A DNA stretch of 64,000 nt from an uncultured delta proteobacterium. GTDB taxonomy: Bacteria; Myxococcota_A; Polyangia; Polyangiales; Polyangiaceae. The stretch is from contig CAWAIF010000003.1 in NCBI GenBank assembly GCA_963782055.1, positions 5,568,001 to 5,632,000 of the forward strand, in the 5' to 3' direction. Positions within the stretch are counted from its first letter, which is position 1. The number at the start of each line of letters is the position of its first letter. Shown here piece by piece: positions 27,608 through 63,905 of the stretch. A program made the position numbers and the translations under genes. The notes beneath the pieces are model-generated. The model saw nothing but the letters and a program-made list of their open reading frames with translations. It made no database searches and had not been told where the DNA came from.

Positions 27608-27767
27608 GGCCCCTCCCGCGTCATGCTCGGGCTCGTGCTCGCTCGCGCGCGCGCCGCCCACATGTGCGGCATACACGGACTGCGGCACGCACGCGAGCTT
27701 GCGCGCGAGCCCTGCGCGTGACGCCCCTCCCCACGGTGTCGCGCTCCGCGCGCCACACGGGGAGGGT
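27608..27767 (-). repeat. Dispersed ~160-nt structured repeat, copy A
   Basis: Reverse complement matches 28792..28953 and 62014..62172. Confidence 0.9.
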
Positions 27768-27850
27768 GGTGCGCTGCCGGTGCGTCCCTCGAACGAGCGG
27801 AGGGCGTCCGATGAAGAGAGCACCGGCTCGGGCGCACGCTATGCTCGGAC

Positions 27851-28762
27851 ATGCGCCTGACGAGAGGGATCTCGGGAGCGGGGCTCGCGTGCGCGGTGGT
27901 CCTCGCGGGCTGCGGCGGCAAGGTGTTCCCGGACGCGGCGGACGCGAGCGGGAGCCCGGACGCCGGAGTCTCCGACGCCGCCGTCGACCATGACGCCACC
28001 GCGACGTGCCCGCCCTTCCAGACGCTCTGCGGGGGCGTGTGCGCCGACCTCGCCATCAACCCGAGCCACTGCGGCTCCTGCGCGATCGCCTGCGGCATGG
28101 CGAAGCTGTGCGTCCAGGGCAAATGCATGGGCGACTGCCCGCCGGGTCAGACCCCATGCGGGGACACCTGCGTCGACACCTCGTCCGACCCGAACGATTG
28201 CGGCCAGTGCGGTCACGCGTGCGGCGGGGGCTTCGCCTGCGTGAACGGCGCCTGCACCCTCGTGTGCGACGCCGACGCCGGTCTGACGGAGTGCAACGGG
28301 CAGTGCGTCGACACGAGCACCGACCCGAAGAACTGCGGGGCGTGCAACAGCCCGTGCATCGGGACGTGCTCCGGCGGCGTGTGCGGCGGCGGCGGCGTCT
28401 TCGTGGCGAAGCTCGGGGCGCAGTCCTTCTACAAGGTGCAGGTCAGCGGCACGATGAGCGACACCAACGTCCTCGACGCGTGCAAGGGCGCCGGCATGAC
28501 CGTCGGCTGCTCCGCGCAATCCTGCCCGCAGTACACCGACAACCTGTGCGTCCAGACGCAGGAGAGCTCCTGCGGCAACCCCATGCTCGACCTCGCGAAG
28601 GCCATCGGGTGCTCCACCCCGGCGACCTGCCCGCAGCTCGCCGGCGTCTACCAGTACATGGGGCAGAAGTGGCAGAGCGGCTCGGCGTGCGGCGCCGACG
28701 GAGGCCAGTGGTGCGCGGTCGGCGACCAGCACTCCGACCGCTGGGCCCTCTGCGTGCAGTGA
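27851..28762 (+). CDS. Cys-rich lipoprotein with Stig1/MXAN_6577-like repeats
   Basis: Lipobox LAGC; three C-x3-C-x-D-x4-P-x2-CGxC-x3-C repeats. Confidence 0.85.
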   Translation: MRLTRGISGAGLACAVVLAGCGGKVFPDAADASGSPDAGVSDAAVDHDATATCPPFQTLCGGVCADLAINPSHCGSCAIACGMAKLCVQGKCMGDCPPGQTPCGDTCVDTSSDPNDCGQCGHACGGGFACVNGACTLVCDADAGLTECNGQCVDTSTDPKNCGACNSPCIGTCSGGVCGGGGVFVAKLGAQSFYKVQVSGTMSDTNVLDACKGAGMTVGCSAQSCPQYTDNLCVQTQESSCGNPMLDLAKAIGCSTPATCPQLAGVYQYMGQKWQSGSACGADGGQWCAVGDQHSDRWALCVQ

Positions 28763-28791
28763 TCCCCGCCGAGGTCGGTGCCGGACGGGAC

Positions 28792-28953
28792 CCCCTCCTC
28801 CCCGTGTGGCGCGCGGAGCGCGACACCTTGGGGAGGACGCGTGCGCGCAGGGCTCGCGCGCAAGCTCTCGTGCGCGCCGGACCCCGTGCATCATGCACAT
28901 GTCGGGCGGCGCGCGCGAGAGCGAGCACGAGCCCGAGCACACGCGAGGAGGGG
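28792..28953 (+). repeat. Dispersed ~160-nt structured repeat, copy B
   Basis: CCCCTCCTC...GAGGAGGGG terminal complementarity; nested stems. Confidence 0.9.
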
Positions 28954-28982
28954 CAGCCCCCCTTCTCCCTCTCCCTCGCTCC

Positions 28983-30341
28983 CTAGTACCGCGGCTCGGT
29001 CGTGATCCCCGTGTGCGTCGGCGCCGGCTTCGGGTGGTACCAGTAGTGGCGCACTCGCTTCACCACGTGCTTCTTCCCCGCGTCCAGCGTGGGCGTGACC
29101 CCGTCGATGTCCAGCACCGTCGTGCTCTGCACGGTGACGGGCGCGGCCGACGGCACCGGCGCGGTCTCCGCAGGCGCCGGGTCCACCGAGGGCTGCGGCG
29201 CCGCCGCCGCTGCCGCCGACGATGAGGCAGGCAGCGCGCCGAGAGGCCGGGAGGGCTCGCTGCGGAAGACGAAGACCATCGCCACGGCGGCGGCCACCAC
29301 CGCGAAGAGCGCGAACCCGAGCCCCACGCGCGACGCCGCCGAGCCGACGCGCGTGTGCGTCGCCGCCGTCACCGCCGTCTCCGTCGGCACCGCGACGTGG
29401 CCGCCGTGGACGATGGGCAGCGCCCGCGGGGCCTCCGTCGCCGGGCCGAGCGCCCGCCACGCGCGCTGCATCTCCAGCGCGTCGGCGAAGCGGTCCCCCG
29501 ACTTGCGCGAGAGGCACCGCGCGAGCAGCGCGTCCAGCCCGGCGGGGATCATCGTCTGCGTGCAGTCGCGCACGCGCATCGCGTGCCCCTCCAGCTTCGC
29601 CGCGAGGATCGCCATCTGACCCTGCGCCTCGTAGGCGACGCGGCCGCAGAGCATCTCGAAGGCGACCATCGCCAGCGCGTAGAGGTCCGCCCGGCCGTCC
29701 ACGTCCGAGGCGCCGCGGATCTGCTCCGGCGCCATGTACGAGACGGTGCCTACCGACTCGCCGGTGATGGTGAGCTTCTCGCCGTCGCTCTGGTCCAGCT
29801 TGCAGACGCCGAAGTCCAGGATCATCGCGCGCTCGGTCTGCGGCGCGGGCGGCGGCGGCGCGGATGGGTCCAGCACGCCGGCGGGGAGGGTGGGCGCCTC
29901 CCCCTGGTCCAGGAAGATGTTGCCCGGCTTCAGGTCGCGGTGCACGACGCCGGCGGCGTGGGCGTCCGCCAGCCCGGAGAGCGCGTCGTCCACGATGCGC
30001 CGCACCTCGTCCCACGGGAGCACCGGCCGCACGCGCAGCCGCTCGGAGAGGGACTGGCCGTGGAGGCGGCGCATCACCAGGAAGAGCTCGCCGTCCTGCG
30101 TGCGGTCGATCTCGTAGACCTCCGGCACGAAGAGGCTCTTGATGCGCCGCGCGGCGACGGCCTCGCGCTCCAGGCGCGCCATCAGCGTGTCGTCCACCAC
30201 GGTGCGGCTGACCACCTTGATGGCCACCTCCGCGCCGTCGTACGTCCGCTTCGCGGCGAACACCTCCCCCATCCCGCCGCGTCCGATGCTGGACACGAGC
30301 AGGTATTTGCCCCGCAGGAGGGCGCCGGGCTGGAGTTGCAC
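28983..30341 (-). CDS. Membrane Ser/Thr protein kinase
   Basis: GRGGMG, VAIK, HRDLKPGN, DFG, GTVSYMAPE, TM helix, Pro/Ala-rich tail; GTG start. Confidence 0.92.
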   Translation of the reverse strand: MQLQPGALLRGKYLLVSSIGRGGMGEVFAAKRTYDGAEVAIKVVSRTVVDDTLMARLEREAVAARRIKSLFVPEVYEIDRTQDGELFLVMRRLHGQSLSERLRVRPVLPWDEVRRIVDDALSGLADAHAAGVVHRDLKPGNIFLDQGEAPTLPAGVLDPSAPPPPAPQTERAMILDFGVCKLDQSDGEKLTITGESVGTVSYMAPEQIRGASDVDGRADLYALAMVAFEMLCGRVAYEAQGQMAILAAKLEGHAMRVRDCTQTMIPAGLDALLARCLSRKSGDRFADALEMQRAWRALGPATEAPRALPIVHGGHVAVPTETAVTAATHTRVGSAASRVGLGFALFAVVAAAVAMVFVFRSEPSRPLGALPASSSAAAAAAPQPSVDPAPAETAPVPSAAPVTVQSTTVLDIDGVTPTLDAGKKHVVKRVRHYWYHPKPAPTHTGITTEPRY

Positions 30342-30376
30342 GCGGGTAATGTAGCAAAAAGTGGGCGCCCCGGGCT

Positions 30377-32044
30377 TCAGCCCGGCGCGCCCGTCTTCCG
30401 GAGCTGCTCCTTGAGGACCTTCCCGGTGGGATTGCGCGGCAGCGCGGGGAGCACGACGTACTCCCGCGGGACCTTCGGCCCGGCGAGGCGCTCGCGGAGA
30501 AACTGCTTGATCTGCTCGGCGTCCAGCGTGGCACCGGGGCGCGGGACCACGAAGGCCTTCACCCTCTCGCCCCACTCCGGGTCGGGCACGCCGATCACCG
30601 CGCCCTCGAAGACGTCGGGGTGCTCCTCCAGCGCCGACTCCACCTCCGCCGGGTACACGTTCACGCCGCCGGTGATGATCATGTCGCGCTTGCGGCCCTC
30701 GATGAAGTAGCGGCCGTCGATATCGCGCCGGGCGAGGTCGCCCACGCTGAAGAAGCCGGAGAGCATGCTGCGCTTCGTCGCGGCGTCGTCGTTGTGGTAG
30801 CCGGCGACGAGCTGCGAGTTCTTGACGTAGAGCTCGCCCACGGCGCCGTCCTTCACCGGCTGCTTCTGGTCGTCCACCAGCATGATCTCGTTGCCGGGCA
30901 GCGGCTTGCCGATGGTGCCTGGCGCGGCGCGCATGTCGGCGGGCTTGGCGAGGGTGACGAGGCCTGTCTCGGTGGAGCCGTAGAAGTTGAAGACGATGTC
31001 CCCGAAGAGGTCCATCGCCTCGCTGGCGAGCTGGCCGGTGAGCGCCGACCCCGCGCAGAAGATGGCGCGGAGCGAGCGCGTGCGCCGGCGCGCGACGGCC
31101 TCGGGCCCGAGCGCCGCCAGGCGGTGCAGCATCGTGGGGACCATCGCTGTCGTGGTGATCGCGTGGCGCTCCACCAGATCCAGGAACACCTCCGGCTTGA
31201 ACTCGTCGGCGATGACCGCCGTCGCGCCGATGGAGTGGGCGAAGGTCATGAAGGCCCACGCCGTCATGTGGTAGAGCGGACACACGACGAGGTGCACGTC
31301 GTCGACGCGCATCGGCGTCTCCGCCACCATCTCCGCCACGGTGACGAGCATCTCCCGCGGGAAGCGTCGGACGGCGCCCTTCGGCTTGCCGGTCGTGCCG
31401 GAGGTGTAGGTCACCACCGCGGCCGCCTCGTCGTCACCGGCGACGGTGCCGCTCTTGCCGCCGGCGAGCACGTCCTCGAAGCGCAGGCACCCGGGCACGT
31501 CGCCGCCGATGCTCACCAGCCGGTCCTTGCCGACGGGCAGGTTCGGCAGCGCCTGCTCGATCTGCGGCCACAGGTCGTGCTCGAAGACGACGAAGCGCGC
31601 GCCGCAGTTGGTCGCGAGGAACTCCAGCTCCTTCGCGGTCGACCGCCAGGACACCGCGACGGCCGCGGCGCCCACGCGCGCGGTGCCGGTGCTCGCCACC
31701 ACGAACTCCGGCCGGTTGCGCGTCATGAGCAGCACGCTCTGCCCGCGCCGAAGGCCGCGCGCGACCAGCCCGCTGCCGAAGCGACCAATCTGCTCGTCGA
31801 GCTGGGCGTAGGTGCGCGTCTCGTCGCGCCACACCAGCGCGGTGCGGTCGGGGTGGGCGCCGGCGTGGATGGAGTAGAGGGTGGACGGGTTCTGGTGGGG
31901 TCGCCCGAGCGCGCGCAGCACCGCGGCGAGGCCGCCCGGGCCGACGTCCCACATCATCCCGGAGGAGCGGGCGAGCCTGGCGATGGCGCGGACGCGGTGC
32001 GGCGCCTCCGTCACCCGCTGGCGGATGTCCTGGAGGGAGACCAC
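30377..32044 (-). CDS. Acyl-CoA synthetase / AMP-binding enzyme
   Basis: YTSGTTGKPKG, FYGSTE, GDLA, GRKRDMIITGGVNVYPAEVE, LPRNPTGK. Confidence 0.93.
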   Translation of the reverse strand: MVSLQDIRQRVTEAPHRVRAIARLARSSGMMWDVGPGGLAAVLRALGRPHQNPSTLYSIHAGAHPDRTALVWRDETRTYAQLDEQIGRFGSGLVARGLRRGQSVLLMTRNRPEFVVASTGTARVGAAAVAVSWRSTAKELEFLATNCGARFVVFEHDLWPQIEQALPNLPVGKDRLVSIGGDVPGCLRFEDVLAGGKSGTVAGDDEAAAVVTYTSGTTGKPKGAVRRFPREMLVTVAEMVAETPMRVDDVHLVVCPLYHMTAWAFMTFAHSIGATAVIADEFKPEVFLDLVERHAITTTAMVPTMLHRLAALGPEAVARRRTRSLRAIFCAGSALTGQLASEAMDLFGDIVFNFYGSTETGLVTLAKPADMRAAPGTIGKPLPGNEIMLVDDQKQPVKDGAVGELYVKNSQLVAGYHNDDAATKRSMLSGFFSVGDLARRDIDGRYFIEGRKRDMIITGGVNVYPAEVESALEEHPDVFEGAVIGVPDPEWGERVKAFVVPRPGATLDAEQIKQFLRERLAGPKVPREYVVLPALPRNPTGKVLKEQLRKTGAPG

Positions 32045-32048
32045 GCGC

Positions 32049-32456
32049 CTAGGCCTTGGGCTCGCGCGCCAGGAGCTTGGTGGAGATGTGCTCGCCCAGC
32101 GCCTCGCTCATCATCTTCTCGACGAAGTCCTCCAGCGCCTCGCGCTCGGAGTCCTGGGCGAAGAGGAAGCGGATGCCCATCCCCGGCTGCGAGCTGGCCT
32201 TGGCGGCGTCCGCCTCGGTCGTGACCCACATCACCTGGCCGCGAAGCCTGAGCTGCTTGTCCTGGGTGGGCAGCGAGAGCACGAAGACGAACTCGGTCCC
32301 CACGTCGAGCGGCTTGGTGGTGCGGATGAAGGTGCCGCCCTTGGAGATGTTCTTCGTGTAGTCGGCGAAGAAGGTGTTGATGCGCTTGTAGTCGACCCGC
32401 AGCGTGATGGCCGCGCGGTCCTCGATTCGCCGCTCGGAGGGCGGGGTCTCCACCAT
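32049..32456 (-). CDS. PilZ-domain protein (myxobacterial TIGR02266 type)
   Basis: ERRIEDR (RxxxR), NISKGG, GMGIRF. Confidence 0.88.
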   Translation of the reverse strand: MVETPPSERRIEDRAAITLRVDYKRINTFFADYTKNISKGGTFIRTTKPLDVGTEFVFVLSLPTQDKQLRLRGQVMWVTTEADAAKASSQPGMGIRFLFAQDSEREALEDFVEKMMSEALGEHISTKLLAREPKA

Positions 32457-32522
32457 GCGCAGGCACGTTAGCACGACCCTGGGCCTGGCGTCCGGCGCCT
32501 GGCGACCCTACCTTGAGAGGCC

Positions 32523-33467
<945 letters not shown>

Positions 33468-33533
33468 GCGCGCGCCGCGACGTCCCGGGCCGGTTGGTCC
33501 CCGTCGCGGCCGCGCGTATGCTCATCGCCACCC

Positions 33534-34316
33534 ATGGAGGCTCCCCCGCGCGCGTGCCGCCCCCGGACCCTTCGCGTCGCGCTCGCGCTCGTCGTCGCCG
33601 GGTGCGGCGCGGGCGGGCAGCAAACCACCGGCGCCTCGACACCGGCCACGGGGACGATCACCATCCCGAGCGCCGCCCCGAGCGCGAGCGCGCCCGCCGC
33701 CTCCGCCACGGCGGTCTCGCTGGCCGAGCCTCCGCCGCGCACCAACCACGGCTCCGGCCCGGACGGATGCTTCACGCGCGAGGAGCTCGCCGCGCGGCAG
33801 GCGCAGGTGAAGTCCGACCGAAGGGCGACCTACGTCGAGGCGCTCCGCCGCGACGGCCTGCGGCCGGTGCACCTCACGGCCCGCAGGCTGCGCAGCGGGA
33901 GCACGGCGATTGAGTTCCGCGGGCCCGTCCCGCCGGCGCACGTCGAGGAGCGCGAGATCGCGCCTCACCGCCGCGTGAAGCTCATCGTCACGCCGCCCAC
34001 CGGGGGCTGCGGGGATTTATCGACGGCCTTCGAGTTCGCCCGCGGGGGCGATCGCGTGTGGCTGGTGCAGCGCCACGTGCACAGCCGGAAGATCGAGGTC
34101 GCGCTGTGCGGGTGTCCGGGCTGCAAGTGCGAGTCTCCCGATGAGCCCGGGTGCGGCGGCGTGGCGATGGCCCTGACGACCATCCTCGGCTACGAGCTGC
34201 CCGACGGGACGCACTTCGCCGGGACGCGCGAGGTGGAGTACGTGGAGGACTTCGTCGACGTCACCAAGGTGATGCAGCCGCAGCCCGCGTGCGTGGCGCC
34301 GCAACCGCGGCCGTGA
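33534..34316 (+). CDS. Hypothetical lipoprotein with Cys cluster
   Basis: Lipobox VAGC, Ser/Ala/Pro linker, CGCPGCKC...CGG. Confidence 0.7.
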   Translation: MEAPPRACRPRTLRVALALVVAGCGAGGQQTTGASTPATGTITIPSAAPSASAPAASATAVSLAEPPPRTNHGSGPDGCFTREELAARQAQVKSDRRATYVEALRRDGLRPVHLTARRLRSGSTAIEFRGPVPPAHVEEREIAPHRRVKLIVTPPTGGCGDLSTAFEFARGGDRVWLVQRHVHSRKIEVALCGCPGCKCESPDEPGCGGVAMALTTILGYELPDGTHFAGTREVEYVEDFVDVTKVMQPQPACVAPQPRP

Positions 34317-34535
34317 GCGCTGCGCGAGCGTCGTGGGGGCGGCGCGCCGCCGGCGGTCTGAGCGACGCAGTCGTCCTCGCACGCCTGCACGCTGGCGCAC
34401 ACGGGCGGCTGGCGAAGCTGGCTGTTGCTGCAGCAGGTCGCGCGCTGCGAGAGGTATGCGCACTGCGGCCACGAGCAGCCGCTCGTCTGCGCGATGCAAT
34501 GGTCGAACTGCGCGGTGAGCGGGTCCGAAGCGTGC

Positions 34536-37367: not shown

Positions 37368-37381
37368 TACACACGGGGCGC

Positions 37382-52924: not shown

Positions 52925-52980
52925 GGCGCCCTCCTTTCCGAGTAACTCGGGGGGGACCGAGTGGGATGCTGGTGCACCAG

Positions 52981-53414: not shown

Positions 53415-53430
53415 TGGCATGCAGGATGCT
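53415..53430 (+). promoter_or_regulatory. sigma54 (-24/-12) promoter of the lipoprotein operon
   Basis: TGGCAT-GCAGG-ATGCT, 12 nt before GTG 53443. Confidence 0.65.
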
Positions 53431-53442
53431 TGAGGCGGCCCC

Positions 53443-54114: not shown

Positions 54115-54770
54115 GGCGCCTCCTCGCAGCGACCGGGATCGCGGTCGCGCTGGGCGCGTGCGCGACGCCGGCGGAGATCCAGCCGCCCGTCCTCCGCGTG
54201 CGACGCGGGCCTGCCGCCTCGCGCCCCGTCCATCGCGTGGTGGCGACACGCGCGACGTGCGGCTCCTTCTCGTCGCTGGCGGGCGACGCGGGGGCGGTCG
54301 CCTCGGCGCCCTGCAGCCCGGACGCGGTCCGCGGCGTGGACGAGCTCGTCCGCGCGGCGCTCGAGTTTCGCGGCTACGACGTGCTGGACGCCGAGGCGAT
54401 CAACGCGGTCACCGCCGCGCGCTCCGAGACGACCACCGAGCGCTCCGACAGACCAGGCGCGACGCGGTCTTCGGTCACCACGGTCGAGGAGGGCTCCCGG
54501 TTCGAGGACCGGACACCCCTCGAGCAGACCGCCATCCTCCGGAAGCTCGGCGCCGACGGCGTGGTCTCGACGCGCATCTGGATCGGCGCGCGCGCGGGGG
54601 CGATGAGCATGGAGCGCACCGCCACGGTGCAGGTGACGCTCGCCGGCGCGGCCGACGGCGCGCTCGTGTGGTCGCGCCGGTGCGATCTCCTCGTGGGCGG
54701 GCTCACCGCGACCGACGCGGTGGCGATGGAGCACGGCGCGCGGTGCGCCATGGCCGGGGACGCGCCGTGA
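54111..54770 (+). CDS. Lipoprotein, paralog 2
   Basis: GTGA overlap; lipobox LGAC; RAALEFRGY, LGADGV, LVWSRRC, ARCAMA. Confidence 0.7.
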   Translation: MRRLLAATGIAVALGACATPAEIQPPVLRVRRGPAASRPVHRVVATRATCGSFSSLAGDAGAVASAPCSPDAVRGVDELVRAALEFRGYDVLDAEAINAVTAARSETTTERSDRPGATRSSVTTVEEGSRFEDRTPLEQTAILRKLGADGVVSTRIWIGARAGAMSMERTATVQVTLAGAADGALVWSRRCDLLVGGLTATDAVAMEHGARCAMAGDAP

Positions 54771-55396
54771 GGCGAGGTGCGGCAGGCGCCGTCCTCCTCG
54801 CCTCCGGGCACCTGCTCGGCTGCAGCGTGGGGGTGGGCGGTGCGTACGTCGGCAAGTACCGCGCGCACGACGCCGTGCAGTACGAGGCGTGCCTCGAGGA
54901 CGCGGCTGGCCGCTGCGCGGACACGAGGGTCTCCACCCGTCACGTCCCCGCCCGCTCCTTCACCGGCGCGGTCCTCGCCTTCCCCGCGCTGGGCGCTGCG
55001 GTGGTGACTCACGACGGCGACACCTCGGCGCGCTTTCGCGTGGACGGGTCGCTGGAGGTCCTCGCGGGCAAGGGACGCTTCGCGGTGGGCGGGCGCACCG
55101 ATGTCCTCTTCGACGATCAGGGCGCGGTGTCCGTCCCGGTGACGATCGTCGGGCACGCGTCGCTGCTGGAGCGTCTCAGCGTCCACGCCGGCGTCGGGTA
55201 CGTCCCGTACTCCAACCTCGCCGGAGAGATCTCTCTCGTCGGCGCGCGCGCGCTGGCCGGCGTCCAGATCGGCCTCATCCGGGCGTCGCAGACGAGCTAC
55301 GTCGTGCTCACCGTCGAGACCGACCTGACGTGGGTCGACTTCACCACCTCCTATCTCTCCAACGGCTACACCACCCACCTGGGGTTCTTCTTCTGA
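54767..55396 (+). CDS. Putative outer-membrane beta-strand-rich lipoprotein
   Basis: GTGA overlap; LLGC; alternating amphipathic strands; C-terminal YTTHLGFFF. Confidence 0.65.
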   Translation: MRRGAAGAVLLASGHLLGCSVGVGGAYVGKYRAHDAVQYEACLEDAAGRCADTRVSTRHVPARSFTGAVLAFPALGAAVVTHDGDTSARFRVDGSLEVLAGKGRFAVGGRTDVLFDDQGAVSVPVTIVGHASLLERLSVHAGVGYVPYSNLAGEISLVGARALAGVQIGLIRASQTSYVVLTVETDLTWVDFTTSYLSNGYTTHLGFFF

Positions 55397-55427
55397 GCCT
55401 CGCTTCTCCACCGACCAAGGGACTCGC

Positions 55428-56141
55428 ATGAAATCGACCATCTTTGCCGTCGCCTTTCTCGCGCTCGGCGCTTGCGCGAGCCCCCCGCGGCCGCTCTCTC
55501 CGGAGGTCGCGCTCGGCCCGGCGCGCGCCGCCCGTCCGGCGCGCGTGCTCGTCACCAGGGCGCACTGCGGCTCGATGGAGTACCGGTGCCCCGCCGACTA
55601 CGGGCGCACCGTCGACCAGATCATCCGCTCGCAGCTGGAGTTCACCGGCCACTCCCTGGTCGAGGGCGACGCGCTGCTGCGCACCACGCGCGCGCGCCAC
55701 GAGGAGCACCAGGACTCCAGCACCACGACCGAGAGTCACCACGAGACGGTCACCGGCCGGGAGATTGGCGCTCCCCTCGGCCTGAACCGCCGGACGAAGT
55801 CGGAGGCCGTCACCACGACGACCACCGAGACGGGCCTCGTCGTCCTCGACGGCCCCACCTTCGAGGATCTCTCGGTCGACGAGCGCAAGGAGGTCCTCGC
55901 CAAGTCGGGCGCCGACGCCGCGCTGTCGGTGCGGGTGGTCATCGGCGGCCAGCAGGGCGTCTGGTTGCCCGACCAGAACGTCGAGGTGACGGTGAAGATG
56001 TCGGAGGGCGACGCGATGGTCTGGGCCTCGCGCTGCCTCGCCAGCTCCAACGACTACGCGACGGTGAGCGCGGCGCTCGAGGCGGCCTCGCGCTGCGCGA
56101 TGGACGGGGCGACGTCTGCGGGAGCGGGCCCGCGCCCCTGA
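55428..56141 (+). CDS. Lipoprotein, paralog 3
   Basis: Lipobox LGAC; RSQLEFTGH, SGADAAL, MVWASRC, SRCAMD; Thr-rich insert. Confidence 0.75.
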   Translation: MKSTIFAVAFLALGACASPPRPLSPEVALGPARAARPARVLVTRAHCGSMEYRCPADYGRTVDQIIRSQLEFTGHSLVEGDALLRTTRARHEEHQDSSTTTESHHETVTGREIGAPLGLNRRTKSEAVTTTTTETGLVVLDGPTFEDLSVDERKEVLAKSGADAALSVRVVIGGQQGVWLPDQNVEVTVKMSEGDAMVWASRCLASSNDYATVSAALEAASRCAMDGATSAGAGPRP

Positions 56142-56173
56142 CGTTGGCGCACGGCGACCCGCGCGACCGCGGG

Positions 56174-57145
56174 CTACGACGCCGCGGGCGGCCGGACCCA
56201 CTCGAGCTGGCTCACCTCGAAGTCGCACACGCCCAGCGCGGGGCCGGGCTCGCCGCGCGCGGCCGTCTCGGCGAGCACGTCCTTCGCGAACCGGCGGAGC
56301 CTGCGGTGCGCGCCGTCCGCCGTGTTGATCGCGTCCAGCGTCGCGTCCGGCACGCCGAGCTCGAGGTCGGCGTCGTACGGGCCTGCCGCGATGCGCTCCC
56401 GGATGCGCTCGTCGGAGTAGCGGGCGTCGCCGGTCAGGAGCACCGCGCGCGGGGGAAAGGCGGGCTCCTCCAGGTCGTAGACCAAAAGGAGCGCGTCGCG
56501 CTCGCCGAGCCCCTGCGCGAGCCGCGTCACCTCGTCGACGGCGCACCGCTTCGCGCGCGCGCCCAGCCGGGGCGCGCCGCGCCGGCTGGTGAACTCCGGG
56601 GACTCGTCGCCCGTCGGGTCGATGCCCATGCTCGTCGCCGACCAGGTGCGCCGCCACACGCGCGCGATCCCGTCGCCGTCCCACTCCACGCGGTACGCCT
56701 CCACCTCGGCGGCGAGGTTGATCTTGCGCACGGCGAAGGTGACGTGCCCGTCCTCCCACGCGAAGCGGAACCAGCCCACGCCGGTCGGCGCGGCGGAGGC
56801 GAGCCAGAGCAGGCGACCGTCCCGCACCTCGCCCGCCCAGACCTTCGAGCAGCGCCCGTCCTCGGACCGCCGCCCACGCACCGCGGTGTCCGTCCACTCG
56901 AAGGTGTCGGTCCAGAGCACGCGACCGGCGCGCATCGCCTCCCGCCGCAGGACGCGACCGGACGCGTCGAGATCGAAGGTCCAGCACTCCTGGCTGCGCG
57001 ACGGACGTTCCCGCAGCCGCGGTCTGGAGGCGCCGTACGCCTCCGGCACGATCGGGTTGAGCAAGTCGGCGTCGTCGGACGCGTGGAGGGTGCGCGCGAC
57101 GACGCCCACGGGGATCACCGGCGCCTCGTCCAGCATGCGATTCAT
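56174..57145 (-). CDS. Hypothetical protein
   Basis: 3' part of ORF 56174..58789 with normal amino-acid composition; could start at GTG 57214 (GTGA overlap). Confidence 0.6.
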   Translation of the reverse strand: MNRMLDEAPVIPVGVVARTLHASDDADLLNPIVPEAYGASRPRLRERPSRSQECWTFDLDASGRVLRREAMRAGRVLWTDTFEWTDTAVRGRRSEDGRCSKVWAGEVRDGRLLWLASAAPTGVGWFRFAWEDGHVTFAVRKINLAAEVEAYRVEWDGDGIARVWRRTWSATSMGIDPTGDESPEFTSRRGAPRLGARAKRCAVDEVTRLAQGLGERDALLLVYDLEEPAFPPRAVLLTGDARYSDERIRERIAAGPYDADLELGVPDATLDAINTADGAHRRLRRFAKDVLAETAARGEPGPALGVCDFEVSQLEWVRPPAAS

Positions 57146-57210
57146 GCCGCCGGGATAGCCGGGGGGATCGGAGGCCATCGCGCGGGTGAGCGTCGGGGTC
57201 AGGGCGACGG

Positions 57211-58350
57211 TCACGGGAGCCGCTCCGCCCGCGTCGCGACCATGTCCAGGAGGTCCCCCTGCGTGAGCTGCATGTCCAGGACGTGCAGGCCGAGCGGCCC
57301 GAGCAGGCCGCGGCCGTCGAAGTCTCGGTCGAAGTCGATGGGGCTGACGCGCGCGTCGCCGGGGGGCGGTGTGGTGGTCACGGCGAGGTACGCGTAGTCC
57401 CCGGGGCCGCGCACGCACCGGCCGGAGTAGAAGTCGGGCAGCACCACGAAGGGCGTGACGATGCCGTCGACGCCCCGCAGGTGCCGCCGCGTCATCGCGT
57501 CGAGCGGCATGACCGCCCGCGAGAAGCGGTGCTCGGCGTCGCTCCCGACGTTCGCGGGGTCGACGCACGCCGCCCGCAGCCCGGGCTTGGGGTACCAGCT
57601 GCGCGGGTGGACCGGGTGGTCGGCGCGATACGAGCGATACGCCACGACGCACCCCGTCTCGGTGGCGCTCGCGCACACCGGGAGGTTCCGGAAGGTCCCG
57701 CCGGTGCGCTTGCCCGGCGCCACCTCCACGTCGCCGCCGATGGGCATCGCGAGCAGGAGCCGGTCGCGCATCGACGGGTCCTCGTCGAAGAACTCGCGCA
57801 AGAGACGCACCACCATCTCGGCGCCCTGCGAGTGGCCGATGAGGACGATCTTGCGCCCGTGGTTGTACGCCGCCAGGTACTGCTTGAACGCCGCCTCCAC
57901 GTCGGCGTAGGCGATCGCCAGCCCGCGCTCCAGCCGCTCGTGCGGGCGCAGGTACGTCCCGATGGTGACCTGCCGGTAGTAGGGCACGTACAGGGCGCAC
58001 GCCTCGCGGAAGTTCGCCGCCTGCGCGAAGGTCGTCCGGTCGATGCGCGCGTCGGGGAAGGCCGCGTGGTTGCCGGGCACCAGCTGCAGGTCGACGGTCG
58101 GGTAGACGTAGAAGCAGTCCACCTTCGGGTTGGCGGCGGTCTTGCCCGGCACGACGCGCCGGGATCCGTCGGGGAGGATCTCGGTGGCGGTGCGGTCCGC
58201 CGCGCACGCGTCGTCGCGACCGGGCAGGCACAGCCACCTCGCCGGATCGGCGTAGCCGAGCGGGGCGCGGAGCGCCGCGGTGCCCGCCAGGCCGTGACCG
58301 CAGCCGGCGAAGAGCGCGAGCAGGAGCAGCACGAGGAGAGCGCGACGCAT
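57211..58350 (-). CDS. DUF3089 alpha/beta hydrolase lipoprotein
   Basis: Lipobox FAGC; WLCLP, VDCFYVYPTV, PYYRQ, LIGHSQG, GLHVLD. Confidence 0.88.
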   Translation of the reverse strand: MRRALLVLLLLALFAGCGHGLAGTAALRAPLGYADPARWLCLPGRDDACAADRTATEILPDGSRRVVPGKTAANPKVDCFYVYPTVDLQLVPGNHAAFPDARIDRTTFAQAANFREACALYVPYYRQVTIGTYLRPHERLERGLAIAYADVEAAFKQYLAAYNHGRKIVLIGHSQGAEMVVRLLREFFDEDPSMRDRLLLAMPIGGDVEVAPGKRTGGTFRNLPVCASATETGCVVAYRSYRADHPVHPRSWYPKPGLRAACVDPANVGSDAEHRFSRAVMPLDAMTRRHLRGVDGIVTPFVVLPDFYSGRCVRGPGDYAYLAVTTTPPPGDARVSPIDFDRDFDGRGLLGPLGLHVLDMQLTQGDLLDMVATRAERLP

Positions 58351-58408
58351 CCGGCAGAGCATAGCCGGATCGCGGCAAAATCGGCCCGGGCGGCGATTGT
58401 GCGTTGCA

Positions 58409-58424
58409 TTCTGTAATTACAGAA
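58409..58424. promoter_or_regulatory. Perfect 16-bp AT-rich palindrome, probable repressor operator between divergent genes
   Basis: TTCTGTAATTACAGAA, flanked by GTGCG...CGCAC. Confidence 0.65.
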
Positions 58425-58439
58425 CGCACACTGATCCTC

Positions 58440-59207
58440 ATGGCGACGGCGACCCATCCCCAGGTCGCGGACTTGCAGCTCGCGAGCCCGCCCCAGAGCA
58501 GCAAGGAGCTGGTGCGCACGGCCTCCGCCGGCCGCCTGACGGACGAGCGCCGCGAGCGCGTGCGCGCCGCGGCGCTCGCGGAGATCCCGCGCTGGTACAA
58601 CCCCTGGGCCCACCTGGGCGCGACGCTCTCCATCGGCCTGGTGGTGCTCGCCATCTCCATCTGGCGCCTGCACGCGCCCAGCGCGCTGGAGTGGCTCGTC
58701 GTGCCGGCGGTGTTCTTGCTCGCCAACGGGTTCGAGTGGCGCGTCCACAAGCACGTGCTGCACCGGCGCCGCTGGCCGGTGCAGATCATCTACGATCGTC
58801 ACACCCCCATGCACCACATGGTCTACGTGGAGCAGGACATGCAGGTGCGCTCCTGGCAGGAGCTGCGGCTGGTCCTCATGCCCGCGCTCGGCATCCTGGC
58901 CATCGTCCTCTTGACGGCGCCCTTCGCCGCCGGCGTGGCGTGGCTCTGGTCGGCCAACGCCGGGTGGCTCCTCCTCGTGACGGCGAGCCTCTACATGGTC
59001 AGCTACGAGGTCTTCCACCTCGCCTACCACCTGCCTGCGCACAGCTTCATCGGCCGCACGCGTCTCATCCAGGTGCTGCGCGCGCACCACGCGCGCCACC
59101 ACGAGCCGCGACTCATGCAGAAGTACAACTTCAACGTGACCATCCCCCTGTTCGACTGGATCCTGGGGACCGTGGCGCCGGACGACCCGCCGGACCCCGC
59201 GGCCTGA
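58440..59207 (+). CDS. Sterol desaturase / fatty acid hydroxylase family protein
   Basis: His boxes HKHVLH, HTPMHH, HLAYH, HHARHH; NFNVTIPLFDWILGT. Confidence 0.88.
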   Translation: MATATHPQVADLQLASPPQSSKELVRTASAGRLTDERRERVRAAALAEIPRWYNPWAHLGATLSIGLVVLAISIWRLHAPSALEWLVVPAVFLLANGFEWRVHKHVLHRRRWPVQIIYDRHTPMHHMVYVEQDMQVRSWQELRLVLMPALGILAIVLLTAPFAAGVAWLWSANAGWLLLVTASLYMVSYEVFHLAYHLPAHSFIGRTRLIQVLRAHHARHHEPRLMQKYNFNVTIPLFDWILGTVAPDDPPDPAA

Positions 59208-59273
59208 GGTCGGCCGAAGCCCTGGGTGCGGCGCCGGGGGATCCTTTCGACGCGCGACCCGTATCTGTCCAGG

Positions 59274-59900
59274 ATGCGCTGGATCCTGACCCTGCTTCTG
59301 CTCGCCGGGTGCGGCGGCCCTCCGGGTAGCACCACGGGCGTGGTGACGCAGCCGGACCAGGCGCAGGCACCGCCGGGGACGAGCGGCCACGTCCCCTCTG
59401 CCGCGGCGTCCAGGGCGACGACGACGTACGCGTGGCGCTGGGACGGAGACGAGCCCGGATTCGGGCGCTCCTTCTATCACACGCCGCGGAGCGTGACCGG
59501 CGGCGGGCTCACCTGCACGTTCACCTACAGCGAAGCCGCCCGCCTCGCGAGGACTGCATGCGACGTCTCGGGGCGCGAGCTTTGGCATCACGACGAAGGG
59601 GACGCGTTCGTCGAGGACGCCTCGCTCCTGCTCGACCACGGGACGCTCTACGTCGCGCGCTACTCCGACATCTCCAACGGGTGCACGGTCCACGCGTTCG
59701 ATGCGCGCGCCGGCGTCGTGCGCTGGACGACCCCGCTGCGCGGCCTGGGCCCCGTGGCCCACAGCGAGTACCTGAACGCCGTCGAGCTCCGCCTCGTCGG
59801 CGGGCGCGCCGTGGCCTTCGGCTGGGAGAGCGCAGGGCGGTACGTCGAGGCGCTCGACCCGTCGACCGGCGCGGTGACCTACCACGCGCTCGTCCCCTGA
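59274..59900 (+). CDS. Hypothetical lipoprotein with PQQ-like propeller blades
   Basis: Lipobox LAGC; DVSGRELW, AFDARAGVVRW, ALDPSTG. Confidence 0.7.
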   Translation: MRWILTLLLLAGCGGPPGSTTGVVTQPDQAQAPPGTSGHVPSAAASRATTTYAWRWDGDEPGFGRSFYHTPRSVTGGGLTCTFTYSEAARLARTACDVSGRELWHHDEGDAFVEDASLLLDHGTLYVARYSDISNGCTVHAFDARAGVVRWTTPLRGLGPVAHSEYLNAVELRLVGGRAVAFGWESAGRYVEALDPSTGAVTYHALVP

Positions 59901-59912
59901 GGCGGGGCGCGT

Positions 59913-61091
59913 TCACCCGCGGCGGAGTCCGAGGCGCGCCCGATCGAACTCCAGCGAACGCTTCCACAGGACGGCGGGCAGGCGCTCGTTGGCGGCGGTG
60001 CGCTCGAGGTCGAGCCCGGCGGGCGTCCACACCAGCCACACCTTGCGCTGGTGACGCTGGCCGGGCAGGAGGACCAGGCGCGTCGCGCGGGTGGGCGGGA
60101 CGCGCGCGAGCTGCCAGGGCGCGCACTCCCAGAGCGCGCGACGCAGCGCCATCCTCCATCGCGGGGCCAGGGCGCTGTCGTAGGCGGTGAGCGGGCGCCC
60201 CTCCAGGACCCTCTGCACGTGCTCGCTCACGCGGATCCCGTACTGCGCGAGCGCCTCGTCGAAGGCGCCGGCGTCGAGCTGCGCGACGCACGCGAGGGCG
60301 CGCCGTCGATCGCGCAGAGCGGGCGCGCGGGCGCCTCTCCGCCACAGGTGCGGGGCGGCGTCCCAGCGGTGCGTCGCGTTGTCCGGACGCACGTCGCGCA
60401 GCCCCAGCGTCACCTCGGGGCCCGCGGAGCGACGCGGCGGCGAGCTCGCACACAGCCACACGCCGCGGCCCTGCGACAGCCGCGCGCGCGAGGCGATGGG
60501 GGCGAGGAGCACGTCGGCGTCGAGGGGGATGCGCCCGTCATCCTCCCGCGGGAAGCTCGCCGCGAGGGCGACCGGGTCGAGCGCCGCGAGCGCCGCCCGC
60601 AGCTGCCGCTCCCCCTCCGGCGTCGGCGCCAGCTTGCGGGGGACGGCGGCGCGGACGAGCACGACCGGCTCCGCCCGGCGGCCCGCGGCGATCGCCGCGA
60701 GCACCGGCCGCACCTCCTCGAGCACCGGCGACGGCGCGCCCCGCTCCAGCGGGAGCCGCGATCGCCGCCAGCCGTCCAGGAGGCTCACGGCGCTCGCCAG
60801 CACGCAGGTGCGCTGCAGGTGATCGTCGTCGGCGTGAAGGTCCCAGTGCGGCCTGCCCTTTCCGGGGAACGGGTCCCACGAGATCACGCCATCGCGGACG
60901 ACCGACGGCACCACGTCGACCTTCCCCCGGACGCCCTCCGCGCGGAGCCGCATCGCGGGGACGCCGAGCGGACGGAAGGTGGGGAGGTGCTCCGCCGACC
61001 ACCCGGGCCCGAGCGCGCCGAGCAGCTCGTCCAGGAAGGCGCGTCGCGCGTCCGGCTTCGCTCGCCCCTTCCGAGGTCGCATGGACCTCAC
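59913..61091 (-). CDS. Hypothetical protein
   Basis: Long ORF with Trp/Arg-rich globular composition; GTG 61091 or ATG 61082. Confidence 0.6.
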   Translation of the reverse strand: MRSMRPRKGRAKPDARRAFLDELLGALGPGWSAEHLPTFRPLGVPAMRLRAEGVRGKVDVVPSVVRDGVISWDPFPGKGRPHWDLHADDDHLQRTCVLASAVSLLDGWRRSRLPLERGAPSPVLEEVRPVLAAIAAGRRAEPVVLVRAAVPRKLAPTPEGERQLRAALAALDPVALAASFPREDDGRIPLDADVLLAPIASRARLSQGRGVWLCASSPPRRSAGPEVTLGLRDVRPDNATHRWDAAPHLWRRGARAPALRDRRRALACVAQLDAGAFDEALAQYGIRVSEHVQRVLEGRPLTAYDSALAPRWRMALRRALWECAPWQLARVPPTRATRLVLLPGQRHQRKVWLVWTPAGLDLERTAANERLPAVLWKRSLEFDRARLGLRRG

Positions 61092-61204
61092 GCCGGCAGC
61101 GGCTCGCGCGCGGAGCGCCGCGCGACGGCGAGGAGCACCGTGCCGGCGAGCACCACGCCCGCGTGACGAGGGCTCGTCGCGCTCATGACGAATGTGATGA
61201 TCAT
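61088..61204 (-). pseudogene. 38-codon remnant paralogous to the C-terminus of the neighbouring membrane protein
   Basis: HAGVVLAGTVLLAVARRSARE vs HAAVVLIGVVLVAIARRGARD in 61284..61931. Confidence 0.55.
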
Positions 61205-61283
61205 TGTCCGGCGCACGACCCCCTCCCTCACGGCTCATCCTACTTGGATGTGCGGCGGCTCGGGTGGAATCTCTCGTGATCGC

Positions 61284-61931
61284 TCAGCCCGGCGCCTGTC
61301 TCGCGGCGCCCGCGGTCGCCCCGCCCCCGTCGCGCGCCCCGCGCCGCGCGATCGCCACGAGCACGACGCCGATCAGCACCACCGCCGCGTGGGCTACGCC
61401 GAGGGACGCCACGTAGTCCTGGCCCAGCGGCGCGACGCCGAGGGCGACCACGGCGAGCGCGATCCCCGCGACCAGGGGCGCCGCGCGACGCGCCTGGTTC
61501 ATGTCGCCGGACGCGTCGCGCGCCCACCGCGCGAACGCCCCGATCGCCGCCGCCGTCGCGACGAGGTAGAGGCCGTGGAGGCTGGCGGAGAGCACGTCGC
61601 AGGACACGCTCTCCGCGGAGAGGCGGACCGGATCGCACGGGAAGGTGGCGCAGTTGACGGTCCCCGCGCTCGCCACCCGCTCGCCCGCCAGGATCTGCAC
61701 GAGCAGGATCAGCGCCCGCAGCACGCTCACCGCGACCACGACCCACGCGAAGGACCTCGCGACGCCGACGGCGCGCCCGGGGGACGCCTTCGTCTCCATC
61801 ACGGGGTGCCGGTAGGGATCGCCCGGTCGCGTGCGCGTCCACGGCCGCGGATCGTCGGCCCGTCCCCAGGTGCCCACCATCGTCAGCACCGCGACGATCC
61901 CGGATCCCGCGGCTACCTGGAGCGCTGTCAT
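61284..61931 (-). CDS. Hypothetical multi-pass membrane protein
   Basis: Several hydrophobic helices, GDPYR motif, Cys-containing loop; start 61931 or 61799. Confidence 0.6.
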   Translation of the reverse strand: MTALQVAAGSGIVAVLTMVGTWGRADDPRPWTRTRPGDPYRHPVMETKASPGRAVGVARSFAWVVVAVSVLRALILLVQILAGERVASAGTVNCATFPCDPVRLSAESVSCDVLSASLHGLYLVATAAAIGAFARWARDASGDMNQARRAAPLVAGIALAVVALGVAPLGQDYVASLGVAHAAVVLIGVVLVAIARRGARDGGGATAGAARQAPG

Positions 61932-62013
61932 CGCCACGGGGGACAGTGTACGCCTCCGCGCGCCCGCCGTCGCGGGTTCGTCCCCCGCGCCGAGGTCCGC
62001 CGCGTGCAGCCCA

Positions 62014-62172
62014 CCCTCCTCCCCGTGTGGCGCGCGGAGCGCGACACCGTGGGGAGGACGCGTGCGCGCAGGGCCCACGCGCAAGCTCGCGCGCGCGCCG
62101 GCGCCCGTGATCACGCGCCCACCGACGGCGTGCGCGCGAGCGAGCATGGGCCCGAGCACACGCGAGGAGGGG
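62014..62172 (+). repeat. Dispersed ~160-nt structured repeat, copy C
   Basis: Same orientation and family as 28792..28953. Confidence 0.9.
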
Positions 62173-62188
62173 CCCCCCTCCTCCCCCC

Positions 62189-63694
62189 TCAAAGCGGATA
62201 CCGCAACGTCATCCCGAACACCGTCACCATCACCAGCACCACAGGCACCAGCACCACGAACACCAGGAACGTGTACCCCATCACGTCCCGCGCCCGCAGC
62301 CCGAACAGCCCCAGGATGGGCAGCATCCAGAACGGCTGCACCAGGTTGGCGAGCGCCTCGCCCAGATCGTAGACGGCGACCATCCAGCCGAGGTGCACGT
62401 GGAGATCGTGCGCCGCCTGCATCACGTACGGCGCCTCGATCACCCACTTGGACCCGCCGCTCGGGACGAAGACGCCGAGCACCATGCTGTAGACGGCGAT
62501 GAGCGCGGGGAAGGCCCTCGGCCCGCCGGCGAGGCTCGCCAGGCCGTGGGCGATGTGCTCGTTCAGCTTCGTCGTGGTGATGATGGCGGCGATCGCGCCG
62601 TAGAAGGGGAACTGCAGGATGACGCCCCACACGCCGGGCGTGGCCTCGCGCACCGCGCGCATCAGCCGCGCGGGCGTGCCGTGCAGGGCGACGCCCACGG
62701 TGAGGAAGGCGAGGTTCATCCGGTCCAGATCGATGGCGTACAGCGGGTCCTTCGCCTCCGCGAAGTAGCGGACCAGGTACGCGCCGGCGAGCAGCACGAA
62801 GAGGGCGGCGGGGACGCGCGAGTGCTCCAGCGCCTCGCCCGGCGTCCCCTTGCGCTCCGGGTCCGGCCGGTCGAGCGGCGACACGCCCAGGTCGATCCCC
62901 ATCTGCTCGGCGGTGCGCGCGCGCGAGCCCGTCGGCACGGCGAAGAGCACCACGACGGTCACCAGCGCGATCTCCACCACCACCGAGACGAGGCTCTGCC
63001 AGAGGAAGATGGTGTGCGTCAGCGGGATCATCCCCTCCGGCACCAGCCCGCCGGCGGCGACGATGGTGCGGATGTCGTGCGGCAGCGCGGACTTGGTCGC
63101 CATCTGCAGGGCGGCGGACCCGGAGAGCCCCTGCGCCCACACGCTGCCCAGCCCCAGGAACGCGCTCGCCGCGATGGCGCGGTAGTCCACGCCGCGCACC
63201 CGCCGCGCGACCTCCTTGGCGAGCATCGCGCTGAAGATGAGGGAGAAGCCCCAGTTGAGCCACGACGACGCCATGGCGAAGAGCGCCACCATGGCGATGG
63301 CGCGCCGCGGATCGCGCGGGAGGGAGGCGAGGCGCACGATGAGCCGCCCGACGGGCTTGCTCGTGGCGACGACGTAGCCGGTGATGATCACCAGCGCCAT
63401 CTCGATGGTGAACTTCAGGATGGCGGTGCTGAAGAACCCCGTGCCCCACGCGCCCACCACCTCGCCCGTCGCCGCGCGCACGCCCAGGCGCCCGGAGAGG
63501 GTGATCACCCCGGCGACGAAGACGATGAACGTCGCGAGCAGGGCGAAGACGAAGGCGTCGGGGATCCACCGCTCCGTCCACGCGGTGAACCGCGCGGCGA
63601 CGCGGGCGAGCCGCGACGTGGGCTCCTCGCCGCCCGCCGGACGCTTCGGCGCGGGCGAGTCACCGAGGGACGCGGGGAGATCGGCGCCGGACAT
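62189..63694 (-). CDS. atoE: Short-chain fatty acid transporter (TIGR00366/AtoE family)
   Basis: ERWIPDAFVFA, WLNWG, VDYR, GLSGSA, LQFPFY, FVPSGGSKW, NLVQPFWMLP, ARDVMGY. Confidence 0.88.
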   Translation of the reverse strand: MSGADLPASLGDSPAPKRPAGGEEPTSRLARVAARFTAWTERWIPDAFVFALLATFIVFVAGVITLSGRLGVRAATGEVVGAWGTGFFSTAILKFTIEMALVIITGYVVATSKPVGRLIVRLASLPRDPRRAIAMVALFAMASSWLNWGFSLIFSAMLAKEVARRVRGVDYRAIAASAFLGLGSVWAQGLSGSAALQMATKSALPHDIRTIVAAGGLVPEGMIPLTHTIFLWQSLVSVVVEIALVTVVVLFAVPTGSRARTAEQMGIDLGVSPLDRPDPERKGTPGEALEHSRVPAALFVLLAGAYLVRYFAEAKDPLYAIDLDRMNLAFLTVGVALHGTPARLMRAVREATPGVWGVILQFPFYGAIAAIITTTKLNEHIAHGLASLAGGPRAFPALIAVYSMVLGVFVPSGGSKWVIEAPYVMQAAHDLHVHLGWMVAVYDLGEALANLVQPFWMLPILGLFGLRARDVMGYTFLVFVVLVPVVLVMVTVFGMTLRYPL

Positions 63695-63740
63695 GCGGCG
63701 CGCAGGATGGCGCGATCCGAGAGGAAGAGGAAGAGGGGGG

Positions 63741-63905
63741 CCCCTCCTCGCGCGTGCTCGGGCCCATGCTCGGTCTCGCGCGCGCCGCCCGGATGCACGG
63801 GATCACGGGCGACGGCGCGCACGAGACCTTGCGCGTGGGCCCTGCGCGCGCGCGTCCTCCCCCGGCCCATCGCTCGCTCACGCTCGCTCGGGCGGGGAGG
63901 AGGGG
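63741..63905 (-). repeat. Dispersed ~160-nt structured repeat, copy D
   Basis: Reverse-complement copy with compensatory changes. Confidence 0.88.

Follow-up and report, generated by a model that had tools for sequence, protein, structure and literature searches.

The intergenic element of about 160 nt that recurs in the stretch of DNA analyzed here (the window, 64,000 nt of an uncultured member of the Polyangiaceae) probably forms the end of a small selfish cassette carrying a gene for a DUF559 nuclease, and most of its copies would then be gene-less derivatives of this cassette. The initial annotation had proposed a non-autonomous element whose protein partner is encoded elsewhere, and this is supported. 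An HUH enzyme (RAYT or IS200 type) is not supported as this partner, PF01797 having 0 matches in the genome, which is 97% complete; the partner is the Vsr-like DUF559 nuclease.

The element consists of a pyrimidine block (Y), its Watson-Crick partner (R) and an antiparallel mirror block (R'), which is the order of a class II purine-motif intrastrand triplex with a stem of 7-8 triplets, and both short loops of the classical triplex are replaced by hairpins (~26 and ~107 nt). All four copies described initially are present in the window at the positions given for them and align with a mean column identity of 82%. Parsing of the sequence places copy A, a solo long-armed element of the C-G-G type, at 27610..27766 on the minus strand (Y block 27766-27759, 26-nt hairpin loop, R block 27732-27725, 107-nt arm 27724-27618, mirror third strand 27617-27610), and parse and fold place copy B, a solo element of the T-A-A type, at 28796..28953 on the plus strand (Y block 28796-28803, hairpin loop 28804-28829, R block 28830-28837, arm 28838-28945, third strand 28946-28953). 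These two point outward from a gene for a Cys-rich STIG1-like protein (27851..28762, plus strand; PF04885, E 1.9e-11), which may be cargo or a bystander; the geometry of the pair is that of two-ended DUF559 cassettes. Copy C, likewise delimited by sequence parse, occupies 62017..62172 on the plus strand (Y block 62017-62024, hairpin loop, R block 62051-62058, 106-nt arm, third strand 62165-62172) and is preceded by a remnant of the DUF559 cassette linker of ~35 nt (61984..62016, plus strand), for which an anchored alignment gave a score of 45 against a null maximum of 18 in 60 random windows; the same alignment revealed no significant linker remnant at copies A, B and D. The parse of copy D (63741..63901, minus strand) yields a Y block at 63901-63894, a 31-nt hairpin loop of another type (tandem GA), an R block at 63862-63855, a 106-nt arm and a third strand at 63748-63741. 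A fifth copy had been suspected from position 63975 onward, and element sequence is indeed found there (63979..64000, plus strand, continuing ~35 nt beyond the window), but it is a 3'-truncated fragment comprising the Y block and the first hairpin, which ends after the first motif strand, lacks the third purine block and forms an outward doublet with copy D.

A genome-wide HMM search retrieved 64 matches, 49 of them full-length and one a reverse-strand shadow. The copies are intergenic, dispersed and located on both strands, with inverted doublets among them, and inspection by eye revealed no strong replichore strand bias of the genome copies. Copy B folds with a z-score of about -7 relative to 200 dinucleotide shuffles, both as DNA and as RNA. 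The proposal that differences between copies preserve pairing was examined on 44 of the 49 aligned copies and borne out: 95.2% of the stem cells are paired (shuffle mean 85.5, 0/500; slid controls 26-55%) and two-sided changes occur at 18 of 45 stem pairs. One-sided intermediates are few, almost every change in the stems affecting both partners, and template-switch correction of hairpins could be the source of these two-sided changes instead of selection. The polarity of the G-U wobbles is also kept, with 32 G-T versus 4 A-C cells counted over the long arms of 39 copies, and the earlier suggestion that selection acts on a single-stranded fold with defined polarity is supported, templated correction being its alternative. 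The supposed complementarity of the two ends is not conserved: a run of at least 7 nt was found in only 14 of 44 copies, and the element thus lacks the conserved terminal inverted repeats of a classical MITE. What is conserved is that the two purine blocks mirror each other. Shuffling of modules among subfamilies was also observed.

When the duplex changes, the third strand changes with it. Within this genome, this applies to 29 of 31 rows (T-A-A 21, C-G-G 8), and the C-G-G state may have a single origin, against which the well-supported branches do not speak. A permutation within the genome is uninformative because there is no variation in the first seven columns of R. In 91 parsed elements, 469 of 637 triplet cells are compatible without any mirror constraint, whereas 5000 permutations gave a mean of 419 and a maximum of 442, related elements not being independent of each other; the parser succeeded for 53 of 59 flanks in one set and for 38 of 107 in another, and many rows were lost or parsed out of register. 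In sister species, the A-T pair is shifted to another position and the third strand shifts along. The two hairpins measure about 21-45 and 17-130 nt, their stems covary, and the long one contains two to three repeats of a single internal-loop motif, GCGCA opposite GAGCAY. In 53 of 56 copies the first hairpin has either a loop closed by G..A or a TT loop, and 31 of these loops are GNA triloops, which are DNA-type mini-hairpins.

The element is a long-armed variant of the BoxC/PIT/TM triplex repeat, so that "undescribed", as the initial annotation had it, is only partly right: the core belongs to a described type. Similarity to BoxC/PIT/TM_ECO, as far as the latter is portrayed in the main text of Holder et al. 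2015 (PMC4666352), extends from the Y-R-R' order and the G-rich mirror strands to the intergenic, dispersed occurrence on both strands, the inverted doublets, the sparseness near the terminus and the variable flanks, and the classical short family is also present in this genome. The ITxF rule demands a stem of 6-15 triplets with at most one mismatch and loops of 1-6 nt. The stem of 7-8 triplets conforms to it, and a detector applying this stem rule gives 54 hits at 5' ends of HMM copies; the loops (~26 and ~107 nt) are far longer and hairpin-folded, and the element is therefore not a member of BoxC/PIT/TM in the strict sense. While the TM_ECO consensus is given there with 9-nt stems and loops of 3-6 and 3 nt, the loops here are long covarying hairpins with repeated internal-loop motifs, and the element is tied to a nuclease gene, which does not figure in the main text of PMC4666352. 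According to that text, BoxC/PIT has been known since the 1990s without function, mobilizer or in vivo triplex evidence, and the published TM gave no triplex footprint in vivo.

The element is linked to DUF559 genes. In the orientation of the element, a full cassette comprises an opposite-strand DUF559 gene (122-130 aa), a long leader hairpin that covers the start codon, a short linker and the element itself. All 11 intact DUF559 genes of the genome lie 190-260 nt from a copy, behind the leader hairpin, and a copy is found on the 5' side of all 11 of these as well as of eight broken loci; copies on both sides occur at two broken cassettes. The leader hairpin is retained with z<-3 at 34 of 38 loci in the genus even though its sequence has diverged. 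The encoded protein falls into PF04480 and has profile matches to 3hrl (E 3e-32) and to an intron endonuclease, 3r3p (E 1.6e-5); the match to NF007294 stays below the cut-off of that model. D58, E69, H75 and D84 are invariant across 16 aligned rows, and dN is lower than dS in 53 of 55 pairs, at a dN/dS of only about 0.6. Cassette copies are only 74-98% identical and therefore do not support recent jumping, and the close pairs may be local duplications. Homology stops at the DUF559 stop codon. Leaving aside the 10 reference cassettes, 28 of the 49 copies retain between 20 and 635 nt of cassette sequence (20-635 nt) as nested remnants whose truncations are anchored at the 3' end of the element. 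In relatives, a triplex is present in 27 of 52 DUF559 upstream flanks compared with 2 of 400 random windows. Across phyla, the triplex detector found an outward-pointing triplex at 39 of 69 DUF559 loci, at 17 of them on both sides, and none at the other 30; distal and reversed controls gave 1/63 and 0/69. Classical short TMs bracket DUF559 in a genome of the same family and in other phyla, while at least 30 short TMs in the present genome have no adjoining DUF559 gene. Six outward pairs in relatives that enclose more than 300 nt contain unrelated ORFs and no intact DUF559 gene, which may reflect cargo capture or independent insertion alike.

The copies show a polarity with respect to host stop codons. 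As had been noted for three copies in the window, 3' ends lie close to stop codons of opposite-strand genes: 7 nt from the stop of a FAD oxidoreductase gene (26076-27602) for copy A, 29 nt from that of a Ser/Thr kinase gene (28983-31283) for copy B and 16 nt from that of a short-chain fatty acid transporter gene (62189-63694) for copy C. Copy D, with its 3' end directed at the start of the transporter gene 46 nt away, represents a minority arrangement: genome-wide, 38 of 53 3'-complete copies are located within 50 nt of a stop, compared with 36% of gap ends being stops according to our own gene calls. In five of five genomes of the genus a conserved gene directly follows the kinase gene, and copy B is thus situated at a synteny break; truncation of the kinase gene by the element can be rejected, since its end is identical in all five relatives. 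The genes flanking the A/B and C/D regions lie apart in these five genomes, so that no insertion junction can be defined, and with synteny this broken the comparison with relatives revealed neither an empty site nor a target duplication; a defined second end was likewise not found. One DNA sequencing run yielded short low-depth contigs, in which the sole informative joint matches another cassette copy and so carries no information on excision.

Cleavage and mobility are inferred. The element would fold in transient single-stranded DNA, with Y pairing to R and the mirror block R' laid back along R; the DUF559 nuclease would recognize and nick the folded element, and host repair or recombination would copy the element end, along with more or less of the adjoining cassette, into new positions immediately after stop codons of host genes. 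A function of the leader hairpin may be to silence the nuclease in read-through transcripts. That nucleases with this fold can act selfishly has a precedent in Vsr-like/EDxHD homing endonucleases such as I-Bth0305I, which belong to the same nuclease group (the accounts in PMC2677866, PMC3943268 and PMC3424549, as far as covered here, class DUF559 with Vsr and 3r3p); unlike these, the present protein is not associated with an intron or intein, lacks a NUMOD-type extension, comprises only about 125 aa and is associated with many unrelated sites instead of one homing site.

A different precedent is Ssn, a GIY-YIG nuclease, with its NTS/SRM repeats (Chenal et al. 2025, PMC11893778, in the part covered here), where a small stand-alone nuclease gene also lies beside a dispersed hairpin repeat that is proposed as the ssDNA substrate of the nuclease, in an IS-like architecture. 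As in that system, the nuclease gene is flanked by the repeat, on one side in 11 of 11 intact genes. Our repeat differs by its triplex core and the nuclease, judged by its sequence, is Vsr-like DUF559, neither DUF559 nor Vsr being mentioned in that part of PMC11893778. By analogy, the pair could be domesticated, with DUF559 cutting ssDNA at the repeats for purposes of the host, such as processing of incoming DNA or recombination hot spots, and spread being a slow by-product. Copies at synteny breaks and the variability of TM loci in E. coli reported in PMC4666352 would fit. A host function would need one gene, however, and the seven genomes of the genus contain 8-23 DUF559 matches each, many of them broken, with a patchy distribution elsewhere, which makes domestication unlikely.

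We consider it still less likely that the element acts at the RNA level behind many genes, be it as an ncRNA or as a 3'-UTR structure for stability or termination. Its strong covarying stems and its position beside stop codons are compatible with this, and as RNA its two strands fold to about the same degree. The conserved mirror block, on the other hand, agrees with a purine-motif triplex, a structure that RNA cannot adopt (PMC4666352, main text). In most copies, the strand with the wobbles runs antisense to the neighboring host transcript, and this strand is favored by DNA energies in 36 of 49 copies but by RNA energies in only 15 of 49; for these reasons the RNA reading is disfavored. Moreover, Rfam yielded nothing at gathering score in the window and one chance miRNA match on three cassette loci, scans around copies A and B revealed neither a promoter nor a terminator-like site, and PIT motifs are summarized in the main text of PMC4666352 as devoid of promoter or terminator activity.

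A role as substrate of another enzyme, with DUF559 as a passenger, appears very improbable. Hairpin repeats in outward doublets, with gene-less copies outnumbering gene-bearing ones, do resemble REP/REPIN/BIME sequences with their RAYT (TnpA-REP) or IS200/IS605 elements, but no Y1/HUH gene exists in the genome, and the unit is much longer and contains a triplex. The 3'-anchored truncations resemble retro-copies, the genome has 13 RVT_1 matches, and msDNA-like repeats occur in a myxobacterium (Nannocystis), all in favor of a reverse transcriptase making msDNA-like copies; yet the nearest such gene is 5.9 kb from any copy, which also rejects a retron msr-msd directly upstream of it, and triplex motifs bracket DUF559 in many phyla. 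A neutral repeat that is kept symmetrical by slippage, template switching or gene conversion and recognized by no enzyme would agree with the two-sided changes and shuffled modules, but it is hardly credible, as it leaves the fixed mismatched motifs, the DUF559 linkage and the third-strand tracking unexplained, the latter because template switching copies complements and not mirror images.

The selfish DUF559 cassette is our preferred reading. A link between DUF559 and BoxC/PIT was not found in the open-access papers and the main text of PMC4666352, to which the search extended. Somewhat tentatively, DUF559 proteins may be the missing enzymes of BoxC/PIT, that is, triplex-reading nucleases that spread transposase-free mobile elements across bacteria; in this genus the triplex would then have acquired hairpin arms carrying recurrent motifs for protein binding, and the three-strand covariation could be evolutionary evidence of triplexes in cells. 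This multi-copy DUF559 unit with a triplex end offers a direct test of how BoxC/PIT-type repeats spread. Given a third strand that has kept pace with the duplex in evolution, and a nuclease of 125 aa linked to the repeat, the questions of function and of triplex formation both reduce to one assay, purified DUF559 on folded oligonucleotides, and a nuclease specific for single-stranded triplexes, if true, would be a new kind of tool.

The four full copies of the element reported for the window (C3:5568001-5632000, on contig C3 of a 7.58 Mb, 72% GC and 97% complete genome) are indeed present, at window positions 27608-27767 (A, minus strand), 28792-28953 (B, plus), 62014-62172 (C, plus) and 63741-63905 (D, minus), while the supposed fifth copy at 63975 is a truncated fragment. 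Iterated nhmmer searching of the genome gave 64 hits, 49 of them full-length and one a reverse-strand shadow, and the covariance model proposed in the initial annotation yielded 58 matches. The predicted fold was borne out by copy B (z about -7 against shuffles) and by pairing that is kept through sequence change: in an alignment of 44 of the 49, the paired fraction is 95.2% of cells, which 0 of 500 shuffles equalled, and 18 of 45 pairs are altered on both sides, with slid controls pairing at 26-55%. The wobble polarity claimed for the 16-bp stem was recovered in the long arm as well: with five rows left out because their subfamily has another register, 39 copies gave 32 G-T versus 4 A-C cells. 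Complementarity between the two ends is not conserved; a match of at least 7 nt occurs in 14 of 44 copies.

About 20 copies share upstream sequence of up to 600 nt, and this shared region is a gene for a Vsr-like DUF559 nuclease on the strand opposite to the element. The genome contains 11 intact DUF559 ORFs (122-130 aa) and 8 broken loci, and each of the 16 ORFs whose start can be recognised has a long or short element beside it, the distance being 190-260 nt where the ORF is intact. Both 3hrl (E 3e-32) and the intron endonuclease 3r3p (E 1.6e-5) are matched by the protein, and its residues D58, E69, H75 and D84 do not vary across 16 aligned rows. Its nearest named relatives are Polyangiaceae and Myxococcales records, which makes Polyangiaceae the probable family of this genome. 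PMC3424549 places Vsr and DUF559 in one group. A leader hairpin with a 26-bp outer stem spans the start codon and first codons of the gene and reaches z<-3 at 34 of 38 same-genus loci despite diverged sequence, and at 1 of 18 loci in other genera. Copies of the cassette, i.e., gene, leader hairpin, linker and element, are 74-98% identical. dN is below dS in 53 of 55 pairs but the ratio of means is 0.61, and constraint on DUF559 is therefore weak. Cassette remnants of 20-635 nt accompany 28 of 49 copies (10 reference cassettes excluded), all reaching out from the element to different lengths and nested within one another; in the window, copy C retains 35 nt, and alignment of A, B and D to the cassette sequence gave no remnant above the null. 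Another short palindromic repeat, of the GCCGCCGATATTGGCG type, directly follows some DUF559 stops (loci L029, L030 and L041; L051 in a sister genome) and also occurs upstream of one solo, i.e., gene-less, copy. Some DUF559 genes of sister genomes (L098, L100, L058) form tail-to-tail or head-to-head pairs spaced by no more than about 300 nt. Contig C2 ends within an element copy (C2:556521-556580), and in fragmented relatives many of the DUF559 hits are found at the ends of contigs; element and DUF559 counts are lower bounds because hairpins break assemblies.

In every copy a Y block (CCTCCCC) is followed by a hairpin of 22-33 nt, an R block (GGGGAGG), a hairpin arm of 105-110 nt and GGAGGGG, the mirror image of the R block. 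Two tandem triplex-like units at window positions 15712-15934 (minus strand) carry the same Y and R blocks on other arms and were both missed by the HMM. According to Holder et al. (PMC4666352), a class II triplex consists of Y, R and a reverse-Hoogsteen strand; its triplets are A(T)-A-T and G-G-C, and its loops are 1-6 nt long. The same authors state that RNA cannot adopt a purine-motif triplex. An RNA element, with the covarying pairs on its side and this chemistry against it, is improbable. The position at which the third strand has to begin is also where the arm is closed, with one-base register slips in some subfamilies. Among 44 rows, the arm-adjacent triplet is T-A-A in 21, C-G-G in 8 and T-A-G, which is T-A-T in the true register, in 2; the third strand is compatible in 29 of the 31 rows with a duplex pair (permutation p<1/20000), and in the 13 rows lacking one it carries C in 9, G in 2 and T in 2. 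The C-G-G state may have a single origin in this genome, no well-supported branches speaking against it. In sister species the A-T pair occupies another position and the third strand shifts with it. Across 91 elements parsed with no mirror constraint (from 53 of the genome's own 59 copies and 38 of 107 flanks in relatives), 469 of 637 triplet cells are compatible (permutation mean 419, maximum 442), kin among these elements not being independent. The arms carry two to three near-invariant repeats of an internal-loop motif, GCGCA opposite GAGCAY, which recurs across the genus on arms that otherwise differ. First-hairpin loops are G..A-closed or TT in 53 of 56 copies, with GNA triloops in 31, and we take them to be DNA-type mini-hairpins.

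DUF559 matches were obtained in 24 of 41 genomes searched, with 8-23 per genome in all seven of the genus, and long-armed model matches in nine, these seven plus two more; the latter counts per genome are at-least values, 68 candidates having been scored in each. The DUF559 numbers per genome speak against a domesticated nuclease-repeat pair of the Ssn-like kind, which is unlikely. Of the upstream DUF559 flanks from relatives, 27 of 52 have an outward triplex within 600 nt, compared with 7 of 55 downstream flanks and 2 of 400 random windows. In a sample from many phyla (80 loci, 69 with full flanks, including two duplicate same-genus loci), such a triplex occurs within 350 nt at 39 of 69 loci and on both sides at 17; controls gave 1 of 63 (distal) and 0 of 69 (reversed). 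The second loop is at most 20 nt in 55 of the 63 triplex motifs listed for these loci and motif-bearing arms occur at only three myxococcal loci, which sets the long-armed form apart. Short-armed forms (arms of 22-48 nt) bridge it and the classical TM, and the latter flanks DUF559 on both sides in a genome of the same family (L070).

The proximity of 3' ends to opposite-strand stop codons, first seen in the window, extends to the genome: among the 53 copies with a complete 3' end, 38 have it no more than 50 nt from one, against a background of 36% (calls from our own gene caller). The cassette therefore reads on in the direction of the host gene, with the wobbles on the template strand. Classical TMs of the genome have the same polarity (25 of 30). 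The kinase beside copy B ends identically in five of five relatives, where it is followed by a spacer rich in purines and by a conserved gene; here, copy B sits at that break. The best match to this post-kinase gene in the present genome lies elsewhere, at C3:1155279-1156635, with another element copy at its stop. Close pairs among the matches listed for relatives, which were all but 9, are, judged by eye, outward in 13 cases, direct in one and inward in none; A/B is likewise outward, and C/D inward. No long-armed copy (P 0.0016 for 40 clusters) and no DUF559 was found in C3:2575151-4164694 (1.59 Mb), which spans the GC-skew peak, dnaA being on C2; PMC4666352 describes a similar origin-side bias for TM_ECO, the E. 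coli version, in K-12. A second repeat family comprises at least 30 classical short BoxC/TM copies with 7-nt and 3-nt loops (e.g., C3:5644334, C3:1815346), of which none adjoins a DUF559 gene and some lie within the terminus region avoided by the long form. Eight RVT_1 matches with identical scores (L002-L008, C3:6984743) probably represent a single group II intron-like element present in several copies; there are four other RT loci, one of them split. None of the genome's RVT_1 matches is near an element copy, and the element as substrate of an enzyme other than DUF559 is improbable. A neutral, self-correcting repeat, which would keep its pairing but must also account for the recurrent DUF559 gene, is very improbable.

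The long-armed element has the triplex geometry of BoxC/PIT/TM but fails its loop-length definition, and is a variant of it. A DUF559-BoxC link was not found in the open-access literature, including the main text of PMC4666352. We consider it probable that the element forms the folded terminus of a selfish cassette carrying DUF559, although this genome and its relatives yielded neither an empty site nor a target duplication nor a fixed second end and PMC4666352 reports no in vivo footprint for published TM, both of which count against it. Binding, cutting and movement are what we infer here. The element would fold as single-stranded DNA at the cassette end and be nicked by the cassette's own nuclease, host repair would copy this end to sites behind stop codons, and variable truncation during copying would leave solo copies. 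The leader hairpin may silence the nuclease in read-through transcripts, as do the leaders of IS200 and T4 homing endonucleases.
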